From Duncaniella sp. (GTDB lineage Bacteria > Bacteroidota > Bacteroidia > Bacteroidales > Muribaculaceae): DNA of 64,000 nt. The translations under genes and the position numbers were made by a program. Below, piece after piece: positions 3,982 through 57,889 of the stretch. The DNA lies in the NCBI GenBank assembly GCA_029056055.1, contig JAIDCC010000095.1:3747-67746 (forward strand). Reading direction: 5' to 3'. Numbering within the stretch: position 1 is the first letter of the stretch; every line of letters begins with the position of its first letter. A model generated the notes under the pieces. It was not told the origin of the DNA. It did no database searches and saw only the letters and a program-made list of their open reading frames with translations.

Positions 3982-4413
3982 ATGAAGAACTCAACGACAC
4001 ATATCGAAAGCCCCGCCGTGGGATGTATGCTCGGCAAAGCATATCAGACGCTCCTCAGCCGTCTGGCCGACGCTCTGGCCCAAGCCGGGCTCGACATCAC
4101 GACCACGGAATACCTCGTGCTCCGCGCGCTCTATTCGGCCGACGGTCTGCAACAATGCGAAATCGCCGGACTGACCGGCAAAGATAAGGCTTCGATATGC
4201 CGCTGCGTGGCCGGCCTTGCAAAGAAGGGACTCGTGACGACAGAGACGGTCAGTCACAAATGCCTGCGGGTCTACCTTTCCGACGAGGCCAAGGCCATCG
4301 AGGCAAGAGTGCTCGAGGTGGCCGCCGCACGCCACAACGCGCTGCTCGCCATCTCTTCGCCGCGAGAGGTTGAGGTCTTCGCCAACGTACTTGAAAAAAT
4401 CATAAGTAAGTGA
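3982..4413 (+). CDS. MarR-family transcriptional regulator
   Basis: 143 aa from the ATG at 3982 (the track ORF starts at a TTG at 3943). It shows a winged-helix pattern: TEYLVLRALY...QCEIAGLTGKDKASICRCVAGLAKKGLV. Its TGA stop lies inside the terminal repeat of the interspersed element. Confidence 0.8.
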   Translation: MKNSTTHIESPAVGCMLGKAYQTLLSRLADALAQAGLDITTTEYLVLRALYSADGLQQCEIAGLTGKDKASICRCVAGLAKKGLVTTETVSHKCLRVYLSDEAKAIEARVLEVAAARHNALLAISSPREVEVFANVLEKIISK

Positions 4414-4587
4414 GAAAAATAAATGAACAGATAAAAGGAAGTTATTTTTGAGATGATTTGAGATTTGAGTGAAGAAGCATAGCGAGCTATGCGCCTGAAC
4501 GAAAGGCTCAAAGCATCCAAAAAGAACGAGTTTTACTGTTCAAGAATTTTTTCTTACATATATCGTTTTATTTTTAGAACTTACTTA
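4403..4587. repeat. ~185-bp nested-palindromic interspersed repeat (MITE-like), copy 1
   Basis: Termini TAAGTAAGTGAGAAAAATAAA ... TTTATTTTTAGAACTTACTTA form an 18/21 inverted repeat. The central hairpin is GCATAG-CGAG-CTATGC. The element is near-identical to copies at 24539, 37265, 42933 and 54525. Confidence 0.9.
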
Positions 4588-24526: not shown

Positions 24527-24538
24527 CTGTGTTCTGAA

Positions 24539-24720
24539 AAGTAAGTGAGAAAAATAAATGAACAGATAAAAGGAAGTTTTTTTGAGATGATTTGAGGTTT
24601 GAGTGAAGAAGCATAGCGAGCTATGCGACTGAACGAAAGGCTCAAAGCATCCAAAAAGAACGAGTTTTATTGTTCAAGAATTTTTTATCACATATATCGT
24701 TTTATTTTTTGAACTTACTT
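24539..24720. repeat. Interspersed nested-palindromic repeat, copy 2
   Basis: Same orientation as copy 1 and near-identical. It starts 12 nt upstream of the ATG (24526) of the minus-strand lipoprotein gene. Its flanking dinucleotides are AA/TT rather than TA/TA. Confidence 0.9.
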
Positions 24721-24841
24721 TTAATAGATTTGTGTGCAAATTTCCTTATAAAATTCGTAACGGCGCAAGGTTTGTCAATAAACGCCCGATAAGTGTCAAC
24801 CGAGGAAAGGCGTCAAATTTGGCGGCGTTTGAAAGATTGCG

Positions 24842-36027: not shown

Positions 36028-36486
36028 GTTACACTCCCCCAAACGGCCAAACATCCCCCGATGAAAAAATGAAAACAATGGATACCGTCGGTCTTGTTGA
36101 AGCCTGCGAAAAGCCCGCTGACCTTTGGAGACAGTGTTATTGGCAGACGTGAGGGCATAAAAAAAGCCCTTCCCTGCGGAATGGCGGATGCGAGTGGATG
36201 GATTGCGGGGGAGAGCGCGATTCAACTTGTTTTCAAATAACGCGCGGGCCGCGAATTAGATATGATAGATAAGTGCGGCCGAGCGACGATACCAATCGCC
36301 GAATTTGTGGATAAATCGTTTCATAATAATGTGGAATTTTGTTATTGTCAGGTGGATATGTTTTATCAACCTTTCGCTATTATAACGCCCTGCGATGAGA
36401 AAAGGTTCAAACACGGTCGGTATGCACATGTCTGTGAGTGGCAGTAATCATCCTAACCAAGACCTATACATACAAAACTGAACGAC

Positions 36487-36606
36487 CTACCCAGAAAGTT
36501 CAGAGAAAACTACCCGGAAAGTTCGGAGAAACTACCCGGAAAGTTCAGAGAAACTACCCGGAAAGGTTCAGAGAAACTACCCAGAAAACTACCCAGAGAA
36601 TTTCGG
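36487..36606. repeat. Tandem direct repeat, 22-23-bp unit CTACCCGGAAAGTTCAGAGAAA; 4 full + 2 partial units
   Basis: Units start at 36487, 36510, 36532 and 36554, with partial units at 36577 and 36589. The units differ by 1-2 substitutions or indels. Confidence 0.9.
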
Positions 36607-36760
36607 ATTTGGTAGCACTCTATTCTTATTTTGAAATTGTTGAACTTTCGGGGCGGCAGGGTGTTTTAATAGCAAAGGCGATACAGAATACAATAAGTAA
36701 CGTCTTTGAAAAGCACACCCTCACATTAACAACTCTTTATCATTTTCTATCTCACTCGCT

Positions 36761-37237
36761 ATGAAAAAATTACTCTCCCTTCTGCCCGCATTGCTTTTAG
36801 GACTCGCCGTGTCATCGTGTTCAGACCACGACGGAAAGGATATGCCTGACGTGAACATTTCGCTCGAATACTCAGGCGGCGCAACCGTGGATAACCACAT
36901 CGTTGTGGAGCAAGGGCAGACACTCTCTATAGACGGACTTTACGTGACCCCCGCCGAGGGCACCAAGAACGCCACGCTCGGACTTACGACTTACTATTGG
37001 GACTTCGTGCCGTTTGAAACGACAGCGATAGTGCCTTTCCAGGCTTCGATTTCAACGGAAGGCATGGAGCTTGGCCACCATGTGCTTCAAGTGCGCACAT
37101 CGATTTATCAGATAGACCGCGAAATGGCCTGGGGCGTATTCAGCTACGATGTCGAAGTGGTAGAACCCTCTTTGAGCAATCCCGAACCTGCAGGCGGGAC
37201 GCTCGTACCGGAGGCACGCATCACCTCGGCCGACTGA
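36761..37237 (+). CDS. Hypothetical small lipoprotein
   Basis: 158 aa with a lipobox (LLGLAVSSCSD). Family not recognised. Confidence 0.6.
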   Translation: MKKLLSLLPALLLGLAVSSCSDHDGKDMPDVNISLEYSGGATVDNHIVVEQGQTLSIDGLYVTPAEGTKNATLGLTTYYWDFVPFETTAIVPFQASISTEGMELGHHVLQVRTSIYQIDREMAWGVFSYDVEVVEPSLSNPEPAGGTLVPEARITSAD

Positions 37238-37264: not shown

Positions 37265-37449
37265 TAAGTAAGTTCAAAAAATAAAACGAAATATGTAAAG
37301 AAACAATCTTGAACAATAAAACTCGTTCTTTTTGGATGCTTCGGGCCTTTCGTTCAGGCGCATAGCTCGCTATGCTTCTTCACTCAAGACCCAAATCATC
37401 GCAAAAATAACTTCCTTTTATCTGTTCATTTATTTTTCTCACTTACTTA
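37265..37449. repeat. Interspersed nested-palindromic repeat, copy 3 (inverted orientation)
   Basis: Reverse complement of the copy 1 consensus. It lies between convergent genes, and its terminus contains the TAA stop (37443-37445, minus strand) of the ATPase-DUF4435 gene. Confidence 0.9.
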
Positions 37450-42932: not shown

Positions 42933-43119
42933 TAAGTAAGTTCTAAAAACAAATCTATATATGTAAGGAAAAATTCTTGAACAGTAAATCTTGTTCTTTT
43001 TGGATGCTTTGAGACTTTCGTTCAGGCGCATAGGGAGACTATGCTTCTTAACTCAAATCTCAAAATCATCTCAAAAACAACTTTCTTTTATCCGTTCATT
43101 GATTTTTCTCACTTACTTA
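42933..43119. repeat. Interspersed nested-palindromic repeat, copy 4 (inverted orientation)
   Basis: The most diverged copy that still has the standard centre. Its central hairpin is GCATAG-GGAGA-CTATGC on the plus strand. It ends 8 nt before the GH2 ATG. Confidence 0.9.
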
Positions 43120-50747: not shown

Positions 50748-51025
50748 AATGCGGTTCAAATAGAGGATTGACCACATCCACGGAGGGTATGTTGCGCGCT
50801 CTAATCGTCTGATTAGCAGGTAGGGACGCGCCATGGCGCGTCCACGCAGACCCACGACTACGAATTACCCCCTCTCGCCGCGCCAACGTCTCTGCGGACG
50901 CGCCATGGCGCGTCCCTACCTGCTAATCAATCGGTTATCTTGATTCGGAGGCGCTGCTATCTTTTGGGGAAGTGCCGGTAGGAATTTCTGATGTCTTCCT
51001 CAATTCTTTATTTGAACCGCATTGT
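50748..51025. repeat. 16-bp perfect inverted repeat pair (CAATGCGGTTCAAATA / TATTTGAACCGCATTG) flanking a 246-bp segment
   Basis: Arms at 50748-50763 and 51010-51025. Each arm overlaps a 15-bp direct repeat TTGTCCACTGTCCCA (50735-50749, 51023-51037). Confidence 0.85.
50812..50929. repeat. Perfect 33-bp inverted repeat (GATTAGCAGGTAGGGACGCGCCATGGCGCGTCC) with a 52-nt spacer
   Basis: Arms at 50812-50844 and 50897-50929 are exact reverse complements. Each arm ends in the 20-bp perfect palindrome GGACGCGCCATGGCGCGTCC. Confidence 0.9.
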
Positions 51026-54524: not shown

Positions 54525-54710
54525 TAAGTAAGTGATAAAAATAAATGGACAAATAAGACGAAGTTATTTTTGAGATGATTTGTGCGCGGAACGAAGGAGT
54601 GTAGCCTGCTACACAACTGAGTGACAAACACAAAACATCCAAAAAGAACGAGTTTTATTGTTCAAGAATTTTTCCTTTACATATATCGTTTTATTTTTAG
54701 AACTTACTTA
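54525..54710. repeat. Interspersed nested-palindromic repeat, copy 5 (variant centre)
   Basis: The termini match copy 1. The central hairpin is GTGTAG-CCTG-CTACAC and the outer stem GATGATTTGTG / CACAAAACATC, both with compensatory changes relative to copies 1-4. Confidence 0.9.
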
Positions 54711-55741: not shown

Positions 55742-55811
55742 GTCTTACCCTGCGGTTTCGGCTCGCTTTTCCGTCAATCGCAACGCACTGTTTCACATTA
55801 ACTTGAGTCAC

Positions 55812-55933
55812 TTCAAAACAATTTACGCAGTGCATTGCGTATTTTTACGCAGCGGGCTGAGGAAAATGTTCTATGCATCCTCAGAACAATTTCCCGAGGT
55901 GCATGACTTTCAGGAATTTTTTGTAACTTTGCA
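55812..55933 (+). repeat. Left copy of the imperfect direct repeat bracketing the ATPase/nuclease cassette (includes a promoter)
   Basis: Blocks shared with 57800-57889: TTCAAA(A)CAATTTACGCAGTG, CTGAGGAA, CAATTTC..GG, GGAATTTTT(T/C)GTAACTTTGC. Confidence 0.7.
55924..55931 (+). promoter_or_regulatory. -7 promoter box TAACTTTG for the ATPase cassette
   Basis: Exact TAnnTTTG, 24 nt upstream of the ATG at 55955. Confidence 0.6.
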
Positions 55934-57767: not shown

Positions 57768-57799
57768 CTGCGCCCTCTCTCAAACCGCCTTGCGTTAAA

Positions 57800-57889
57800 T
57801 TCAAACAATTTACGCAGTGGACTGAGGAATGATGCTTGGCGCAAAGGTAAGCAAATTTTCGCAATTTCGGGAATTTTTCGTAACTTTGC
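57800..57889 (+). repeat. Right copy of the imperfect direct repeat bracketing the cassette (includes the PL11 promoter)
   Basis: See 55812-55933. It carries the TAACTTTG box at 57881-57888. Confidence 0.7.
57881..57888 (+). promoter_or_regulatory. -7 promoter box TAACTTTG for the PL11 gene
   Basis: Exact TAnnTTTG, 30 nt upstream of the GTG at 57918. Confidence 0.55.

Follow-up and report, generated by a model that had tools for sequence, protein, structure and literature searches.

A recently mobile miniature element of Muribaculaceae with a covarying, rod-like hairpin fold

Five copies of one AT-rich interspersed repeat are present in a 64,000-nucleotide stretch of the genome of Duncaniella sp. 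from the family Muribaculaceae (contig JAIDCC010000095.1, GC content of 56.4%), referred to here as the window. The copy at positions 54525–54710 differs from the others by base changes on both sides of its stems, which raises the question of what maintains the pairing. An initial annotation of the DNA had claimed that the repeat is a functional element and not inert debris, because its secondary structure rather than its primary sequence appeared to be under selection. The repeat is a recently mobile, non-coding MITE (a miniature transposable element with inverted repeats), and the explanation that probably accounts for the observations as a whole is a mobile, TA-duplicating MITE with a maintained rod-like fold. 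The structural constraint claimed by the annotation is supported; however, a function for the host is not supported as stated. Constraint on the fold does not necessarily imply a host function, because the element is a selfish, recently mobile MITE, as indicated by its TA duplication and by its presence–absence polymorphism. The constraint may instead serve the propagation of the element itself or its tolerability.

Copies 1, 2, and 5 are positioned on the forward strand of the window, and copies 3 and 4 on the reverse strand. The 14-mer CATCCAAAAAGAAC, which forms an invariant block within the main family, occurs five times in the window compared with 0.37 occurrences expected. The element is approximately 181 nucleotides long (181–190 nucleotides among the copies, 182 in copy 5) and has a GC content of 31–32% (31.9% in copy 5), which contrasts with that of the window. 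Its termini are inverted repeats of approximately 21 nucleotides, AGTAAGT...ACTTACT, in which AGTAAGTGAGAAAAATAAATG corresponds to the reverse complement AGTAAGTTCTAAAAATAAAAC, and the pattern of the ends is AGTAAGTG(N3)AAAAATAAA. The ends of the copy in locus L010 match perfectly, in 22 of 22 positions including the TA, and both read AGTAGTTGCTAAAAATTAAT. A TA is present on both sides of four of the five window copies and of all copies with readable ends from metagenome-assembled genomes (MAGs). Six-frame translation of the element yields stop codons and short open stretches, with no long open reading frame. Each end contains inward-facing stop codons in all three frames, and outward-facing promoter-like TAnnTTT boxes are located at both ends, approximately 12 nucleotides from the tip. 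The box TATTTTTG (TAnnTTTG) is found in the main family and in both of its distant relatives. The interval 54525–54710 singled out by the initial annotation extends exactly from one TA duplication of copy 5 to the other. The copies and the parts of copy 5 are as follows.

4403–4587, forward strand: copy 1, subfamily 1, with TA at 4403–4404 and 4586–4587 and the hairpin at 4445–4523.
24538–24721, forward strand: copy 2, subfamily 1, with the hairpin at 24579–24657 and flanks AA...TT instead of TA...TA.
37265–37449, reverse strand: copy 3, subfamily 1, with the hairpin at 37329–37407 and an outer stem containing G-C and a U·G wobble.
42933–43119, reverse strand: copy 4, subfamily 1, the most divergent copy of the window, with the hairpin at 42997–43077 and the loop UCUCC.
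54525–54526, forward strand: left TA of copy 5, target-site duplication, based on four pairs of empty and occupied sites in related strains.
54527–54708, forward strand: copy 5, the element proper of 182 nucleotides, subfamily 2, between ackA and the DAPDH gene.
54527–54547, forward strand: left terminal inverted repeat of copy 5, AGTAAGTGATAAAAATAAATG, which together with the preceding TA provides stops in three frames.
54567–54645, forward strand: central 79-nucleotide hairpin of copy 5, based on a covariance-model hit of 96.3 bits, the fold, and pair counts.
54574–54584 with 54629–54639, forward strand: arms of the outer stem of copy 5.
54588–54598, forward strand: 5′ purine-rich side of copy 5, G-GA-AC-GA-AG-GA, in which GA faces GA of the 3′ side, and AC and AG form Watson-Crick pairs.
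54599–54614, forward strand: apical stem-loop of copy 5, GTGTAG-CCTG-CTACAC, with pairs 35–49 and 36–48 compensated relative to GCATAG/CTATGC.
54615–54625, forward strand: 3′ purine-rich side of copy 5, AA-CU-GA-GU-GA-C, with pairs 26–58 and 27–57.
54688–54708, forward strand: right terminal inverted repeat of copy 5.
54709–54710, forward strand: right TA of copy 5, target-site duplication.

The flanks of copy 2 (24538–24539 and 24720–24721) do not form a direct repeat, and the outermost pair of its rod, 1–198, stays complementary, with U-A replaced by A-U. The AA...TT flanks may be the result of two mutations, of an unusual insertion, or of chance.

Comparison of related strains provides exact junctions at four sites, A–D, each of which contains a single TA when empty and a TA on both sides of the element when occupied. 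Site A reads TTCCATATTACTTAAG in L029, where it is empty, and TTCCA-TA[AGTAAGT...ACTTACT]TA-TTACTTAAG in L012 and L030, where it is occupied. The protein flanking site A is 97% identical between the strains, and the comparison of sites B–D used members of one protein cluster at 90% identity. The insertion at site C lies within a solo remnant of the right end of another copy. The spacer between ackA and the DAPDH gene, which harbors copy 5, is 320 nucleotides long in the window but 79–92 nucleotides in relatives without the element; similarly, the spacer between the MarR and DsbA genes at the site of copy 1 is 207 nucleotides long in the window and 23 nucleotides in L030 and L037, which lack the element there. 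Since near-identical strains differ in the presence of the element at four sites, it has moved recently. It is shorter than approximately 300 base pairs, does not encode a transposase, and has terminal inverted repeats, a target duplication, and numerous dispersed copies that are polymorphic between strains; it is therefore a MITE. Duplication of TA is a hallmark of IS630/Tc1-mariner transposases, and the element is probably mobilized in trans by a DDE transposase of this type that would recognize the terminal repeats. Derivation from REP/RAYT or IS200/IS605 elements is ruled out by the terminal inverted repeats of approximately 21 nucleotides and the TA on both sides, and an integron attC site is ruled out by the lack of an array. 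A solo right-end remnant of 25–27 nucleotides, GTAAGTAAGTTCTAAAAATAAAACGA, is located directly upstream of the ATG of a WYL-domain gene at L037:16322-16348, and also in L038, L045, L046, and L017. In L042, a copy of subfamily 3 is inserted at a TA inside the right-end remnant upstream of the WYL-domain gene.

Taken as a whole, the element forms an imperfect palindrome, and it folds as a single rod with an asymmetric loop of approximately 25 nucleotides on the 3′ arm. The fold of full-length copy 5 has a z-score of −7.5 as RNA and −5.9 as DNA. From base to tip, the 79-nucleotide central hairpin is predicted to consist of the stem UUUUUG/CAAAAA, a bulged A, the stem GAUG/CAUC, an A·G mismatch, the stem UUUGAG/CUCAAA, a series of 2 × 2 loops, and an apical stem of 6 base pairs. 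In the 2 × 2 loops, 5′-GA-3′ faces 5′-GA-3′, which results in tandem G·A/A·G mismatches between short Watson-Crick steps. The general plan of the hairpin is an alternation of Watson-Crick steps of 1–2 base pairs with two to three tandem G·A/A·G mismatches, closed by an apical stem of 6–10 base pairs. The corresponding parts of copy 5 are basal UUUUUG/CAAAAA, GAUG/CAUC, UUUGUG/CACAAA, the G·A array, and the apical stem. The hairpin is not an intrinsic terminator, as the U-run lies before the hairpin and is paired with the A-run after it.

The base changes described in the initial annotation are present in the sequence. The apical stem is GCATAG/CTATGC in copies 1–4, with the loop CGAG in copies 1–3 and TCTCC in copy 4, and it is replaced by GTGTAG-CCTG-CTACAC in copy 5, where two pairs are changed on both sides. 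In the outer stem, copies 1, 2, and 4 have A-T as pair 10, copy 3 has G-C together with a T-G wobble, and copy 5 has T-A. The stem itself, which was described as having 11 base pairs, is composed of 4 + 6 base pairs separated by a fixed A·G mismatch, which is A·A in copy 5 and at which copy 4 contains an extra T. The annotation also regarded the purine-rich segments flanking the apical stem as exchanged in copy 5. Copies 1 and 5 do differ in the manner described; however, no block has been swapped. The purine frame GA-NN-GA faces GA-NN-GA, and only the dinucleotides NN differ, from GU/AC in copies 1–4 to AC/GU in copy 5. Because only these dinucleotides change, the apparently swapped center represents two further compensatory pairs between conserved tandem G·A mismatches. 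An inversion of the center is likewise rejected, since it would have yielded a pyrimidine-rich reverse complement, and what is observed is a covariation of two base pairs. In total, copy 5 differs from copies 1–4 by five compensated pairs and no uncompensated one in the stems of the central hairpin.

The same pattern extends to the relatives of the window copies. Among 13 distinct hairpins, 96.4% of the cells are paired and six pairs are changed on both sides, a result reached by none of 500 shuffles. In a set of 20 distinct hairpins, aligned by MAFFT blind to the structure, 95.2% of the cells are paired and 11 of the 28 pairs are changed on both sides, compared with 4.2 ± 1.3 after shuffling (0 of 500 shuffles), and control alignments with slid partners contain at most five double-changed pairs and at most 45% pairing. 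The addition of two distant relatives in a model-fitted alignment increases the number of pairs with double changes to 16 of 28. RNAalifold predicts one rod of 62 pairs for 14 full-length copies, with 23 pairs compensated, including those in the terminal repeats and inner arms. One inner-arm pair is G-C in copy 1, G-U in copies 2 and 3, and A-U in subfamily 2; G-U intermediates between the A-U and G-C states also occur in L018 and in the outer stem of copy 3. The inner arms of subfamily 3 have a sequence wholly unlike that of the main family and are still complementary, and both subfamily 3 and the distant relative L048 show covariation of the GAUG/CAUC and G/C basal pairs. Along the rod, the G·A dinucleotides are near-invariant while the Watson-Crick pairs change on both sides. 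The asymmetric insert of approximately 25 nucleotides in the 3′ arm is common to all subfamilies, which indicates a common, asymmetric ancestor rather than a separate origin of each subfamily as a perfect foldback. It is the fold and not the primary sequence that is conserved, as the annotation proposed: compensation is found in the central stem, outer stems, inner arms, and even terminal repeats, and the same architecture recurs in the subfamilies and in distant relatives with other terminal repeats. The reservation that copy 5 could belong to a separate subfamily with a different fold is correct with regard to the subfamily but not to the fold, which is the same.

The relatives were collected from several sources. 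Contigs representing one genome per species were scanned with the pattern GATGATTT-N40-70-CATCCAAAAAGAAC, which matched 18 loci, and 11 of these are real copies, all in three MAGs of one study (Mgla_MAG_1-bin_27, Mgla_MAG_33-bin_10, and Mgla_MAG_19-bin_13). The remaining seven loci match neither the nhmmer profile nor the covariance model and were treated as chance. A scan of metagenomes provided only one partial copy (L019). Subfamily 2, to which copy 5 belongs, is marked by ...GCGGAA...GACAA..., is the commonest type in the related MAGs, and has the same fold as copies 1–4. Contigs around a DNA-alkylation-repair gene adjacent to one of the MAG copies include many strain variants, and among them are the copies of subfamily 3 (L029:1460-1646 and L042:16327-16512). 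The covariance model of the hairpin identified the same G·A-loop hairpin at L009:3990-4068 (43.9 bits) and L048:2580-2658 (39.8 bits). These distant elements have different ends, GAAGTTGCTTAAACTAATTT in L009 and AGAAACTGTTTAAATTTATG in L048, but share the design of basal UUUUUG/CAAAAA, two to three tandem G·A loops spaced by 1–2 Watson-Crick pairs, and a tetraloop-capped apical stem. The ends of elements of the L009 and L048 type show no clean TA duplication. Small inverted-repeat elements carrying the TATTTTTG...CCAAAAAG hairpin are located at approximately 3947–4138 of L009 (forward strand) and 2500–2698 of L048 (reverse strand), and also occur in L049 and L050.

The purine-rich, forward strand is predicted to be more stable than its complement in all 22 distinct hairpins, with a mean difference of −6.9 kcal/mol when calculated with RNA parameters and −3.4 kcal/mol with DNA parameters. 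On the complementary strand, the G·A pairs become U·C/C·U mismatches. The calculations point to a single-stranded, strand-specific form, either RNA or single-stranded DNA, as the molecule that folds. The better folding of the purine-rich strand together with the G-U intermediates argues against double-stranded protein-binding sites and against mechanical homogenization of the arms. Selection acting on the purine-rich strand in its single-stranded state probably maintains the rod. The preferred reading, adopted tentatively, is that this state would be RNA. Co-transcription of the element with its neighbors would then produce a stable RNA rod, which could be processed or bound as in the Correia elements of Neisseria and in ERIC, while the inward stops and the outward promoter-like TAnnTTT boxes would make insertions beside genes tolerable.

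Several observations weigh against parts of this explanation. A·C cells, which would read G·U on the opposite strand, are present as well, with pair 26–58 as one example. The orientation of the element relative to neighboring genes is weakly biased, with 21 co-oriented and 12 opposed flanks in a manual count, and the bias is not significant. Single copies contain uncompensated changes (A·C in L030b and L037b; A·A in L037b, L010, and L004; C·U in L030a), and therefore not every insertion is under constraint. The combination of uncompensated changes in single copies with compensated differences between lineages is explained by selection on each insertion no better than by selection on the lineage that propagates. 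The hairpins represent approximately six independent lineages from a handful of gut-metagenome assemblies and MAGs, and the shuffle control ignores their relatedness. Neither a transposase nor a parent insertion sequence with matching ends was seen in the window or in approximately 0.5 Mb of fetched loci, so that the TA duplication is the sole basis of the IS630 assignment. Moreover, the single TA at empty sites also fits TA-specific insertion without duplication.

Some of these points are accommodated by a role of the rod as single-stranded DNA or a cruciform in the life cycle of the element, in its excision, integration, replication-linked amplification, or transfer, with selection acting only on a propagating "master" lineage. 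Such a role is possible and only slightly less favored than a role as RNA. It would be in agreement with compensated differences separating lineages while single inserted copies carry uncompensated ones, and with the lack of a significant orientation bias towards neighboring genes. Terminal repeats and TA included, the entire element takes part in the fold, and an RNA version would therefore need read-through from outside. The purine-rich strand is favored with DNA parameters too, in 22 of 22 hairpins, and tandem G·A pairs are stable in DNA as well. By contrast, cut-and-paste TA-duplicating DDE transposases act on double-stranded ends and do not need an internal hairpin, and the DNA energies predicted for the 79-nucleotide hairpin are modest, −11 to −17 kcal/mol. 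Pairing could also persist without any selection if the arms of the palindrome were homogenized through template switching, or in a transient hairpin through the correction of mismatches, so that one arm would take over a change made in the other. Correction of quasipalindromes is an established mutational process, and the inner arms of subfamily 3, which are wholly different from those of the main family yet near-perfect complements of each other, resemble a replacement of both arms more than stepwise compensation. However, neither the tandem G·A/A·G mismatches nor the A·G mismatch nor the asymmetric insert of approximately 25 nucleotides would survive homogenization, yet all of them are conserved across subfamilies. 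The G·A array is conserved also in elements with other terminal repeats, and G-U intermediates and persistent single mismatches are present, which makes homogenization an unlikely source of the pairing.

An explanation based on recognition of double-stranded DNA by a protein is equally improbable. In this scenario, the parents of the MITEs would be insertion sequences with very long terminal inverted repeats, bound at both ends by one transposase, and each subfamily would have originated by internal deletion of a different parent, with the match of the arms due to binding and not to base pairing. The terminal 21 or so nucleotides do co-vary between subfamilies as the binding sites of a transposase should, with both ends of L010 reading AGTAGTTGCTAAAAATTAAT, and the central hairpin's loop could mark a deletion junction. 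However, protein recognition leaves unexplained why GA in the left arm is placed opposite TC of the reverse complement of the right arm at two to three fixed positions in every lineage, and it explains neither the G-U intermediates nor the folding advantage of one strand. The least probable possibility, by a narrow margin, is that the element carries a small-RNA gene of its own, in which TATTTTTG, located just upstream, would serve as a Bacteroidota −7 box for an RNA of approximately 100 nucleotides composed of the hairpin, the invariant single-stranded segment CAUCCAAAAAGAAC, and a weak terminator, GAACGAGUUUUAUUGUUC, followed by U residues. The occurrence of TATTTTTG in the main family and both distant relatives, and the invariance of CATCCAAAAAGAAC in the main family, are in favor of such a gene, and multicopy small-RNA families such as FopS exist in Bacteroides (PMC11697453). 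Nevertheless, a transcript starting approximately 5 nucleotides past the box would begin inside the GAUG stem, which covaries, and the supposed terminator is the pairing partner of the left inner arm and has an unrelated sequence in subfamily 3. In addition, no conserved −33 TTTG box was seen, and the element is neither FopS nor a member of any Rfam family.

A broader interpretation, which is possible but rather speculative, is that the G·A-array rod is a functional structured module that was spread through Muribaculaceae by MITE families with different terminal repeats. The module could be a protein-binding or processing signal in RNA, or a single-stranded DNA hairpin for an unusual TA-targeting transposition pathway. 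The hairpin, and not the terminal repeats, would then be the oldest and most constrained part of the superfamily.

Copies of the element are 87–97% identical between genomes that differ by more than 10 percentage points in GC content (44% in L012, 54% in L018, and 56% in the window). By comparison, the region of the gene for ribosomal protein L31 is 75% identical between the window and the MAG locus L004. Because the element is far more alike than the L31 region, and across genomes distinct in GC content, recent horizontal spread among co-resident Muribaculaceae is suggested. The acetate kinase encoded in the window has at most 83% identity to any other in the collection, and the nearest ones are from Duncaniella. 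Many contigs from metagenomes and MAGs end inside the element (L005, L006, L014, L016, L018, L019, L032, L035, L036, L039, L043, L044, L047, and L055), which shows that short-read assemblies are interrupted by it. In short contigs, strains carry non-identical copies at a shared site (L040 and L041 compared with L012), which may reflect assembly chimerism or exchange between copies. A search of the whole window against Rfam 15 gave no hits at the gathering threshold, and copies 1 and 5 gave only chance-level matches (E ≥ 0.15) when E-values up to 10 were considered. BLAST searches of plasmids and phages yielded no match to the element, and scans of viral contigs with the hairpin and terminal repeats provided nothing or chance hits in AT-rich phages. 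The protein collection was searched with peptides translated from the element, as a means of detecting mis-called open reading frames that overlap copies, and none of the 54 candidates scored. A look-up from the left edge of the window yielded no further copy, and the protein at the right edge has no recorded entry.

Many copies are located 8–50 nucleotides upstream of start codons or overlap stop codons. Copy 1 sits in the 3′ end of the MarR gene, 33 nucleotides upstream of the DsbA gene, and its positions 4405–4413 replace the MarR tail ...KIIKNKTR* of relatives by ...KIISK*, with the last codons, AGT AAG TGA, derived from the element. The left end of copy 2 is approximately 13 nucleotides from the start codon of a divergent gene, and that of copy 4 is 8 nucleotides from the ATG (43128) of a GH2 gene. 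The stop codon of the upstream AAA_21/DUF4435 gene (37443–37445) is the second TAA of copy 3 and lies inside the element. At L012:6110-6115, the element separates two convergent genes that are only 7 nucleotides apart when the site is empty.

The window contains additional repeats. A GC-rich inverted repeat at 50802–50937, with 50-nucleotide arms that are 88% complementary, a 36-nucleotide spacer, and the palindrome GGACGCGCCATGGCGCGTCC in each arm, bears no relation to the MITE; approximately 30 nucleotides downstream of it, near 50970, is the start of an ENA contig from the same species. An intergenic tandem array of approximately six units of 22–23 nucleotides (CTACCCGGAAAGTTCAGAGAAA) is positioned at 36464–36610, upstream of the gene starting at 36761. 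Two segments of 54 nucleotides, 55784–55837 and 57771–57824, are 70% alike and both contain CAAACAATTTACGCAGTG. The former is upstream of an AAA_15/AAA_21 gene and the latter upstream of a rhamnogalacturonan-lyase gene, and the pair may represent a shared regulatory site.

The five conspicuous AT-rich repeats of the window are explained as one active MITE family of Muribaculaceae, a major but little-studied family of rodent gut bacteria. Its insertions remodel the ends of genes and their upstream regions, and because the element is polymorphic between strains, it is useful as a strain marker and is a source of regulatory variation. If the G·A-rich rod were a recognized RNA or single-stranded DNA signal, the family would clearly exemplify the spread of a structured module by a mobile element; as matters stand, it is a well-documented example of a known phenomenon.

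MITEs are abundant in Bacteroidota, with 81,380 distinct ones reported from 46,051 genomes (PMC11602168). The FopS/GibS genes of Bacteroides resemble the Muribaculaceae element in being a multicopy non-coding family of Bacteroidales with sigma-ABfr-type promoter boxes (PMC11697453). However, FopS RNAs have a single-stranded 5′ seed followed by a terminator and are included in Rfam, whereas the window lacks an Rfam hit, and FopS genes have not been described with terminal inverted repeats or target duplications. Identity with FopS/GibS is rejected on the basis of the structure and the Rfam result.

The Muribaculaceae element is more similar to the TA-terminated MITEs Correia/NEMIS, ERIC, and RUP, the transcripts of which form long stem-loops (PMC2229807, PMC2649163). 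The ERIC/IRU elements of enterobacteria are intergenic imperfect palindromes with TA termini, and the long stem-loops of their transcripts affect neighboring mRNAs (PMC2229807). Most ERIC copies are old and fixed, unlike the element described here, which is polymorphic between strains. RUP of Streptococcus pneumoniae and other IS630-derived MITEs, such as Nezha, are also small, with inverted-repeat ends, insertion at TA, and proposed mobilization in trans by an IS630-family transposase with ends matching those of the MITE, which for RUP is proposed to be that of IS630-Spn1, acting at TA (PMC2229807). A matching insertion sequence is known for RUP, whereas no parent has been found for the Muribaculaceae element. 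To our knowledge, an internal structural motif conserved through covariation has not been reported for RUP.

Correia elements, also called CREE or NEMIS, of Neisseria are non-coding MITEs of 100–155 base pairs with terminal inverted repeats and TA at both termini (PMC2229807, PMC2649163). They are likewise positioned tight against genes, have promoter-like sequences at their ends, and lack an identified transposase (PMC2229807, PMC2649163). Correia transcripts fold end to end, and their RNA has been proposed as a substrate of RNase III, which cuts or binds the stem-loop (PMC2229807, PMC2649163). The Muribaculaceae element belongs to a different phylum and has no evident sequence relationship to Correia elements, the comparison being one of mode of action and not of the Correia consensus. 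It is without an identified IHF-site core, and its center is instead a hairpin with periodic tandem G·A mismatches. We know of no description of such an array in Correia elements. The periodic tandem G·A array, conserved in the aligned sequences through covariation even where the terminal repeats differ, is the unusual part of the element. The element matches no named family; it represents a new MITE family in a new host group, with the TA-flanked Correia/NEMIS, RUP, and ERIC elements as its closest known counterparts.

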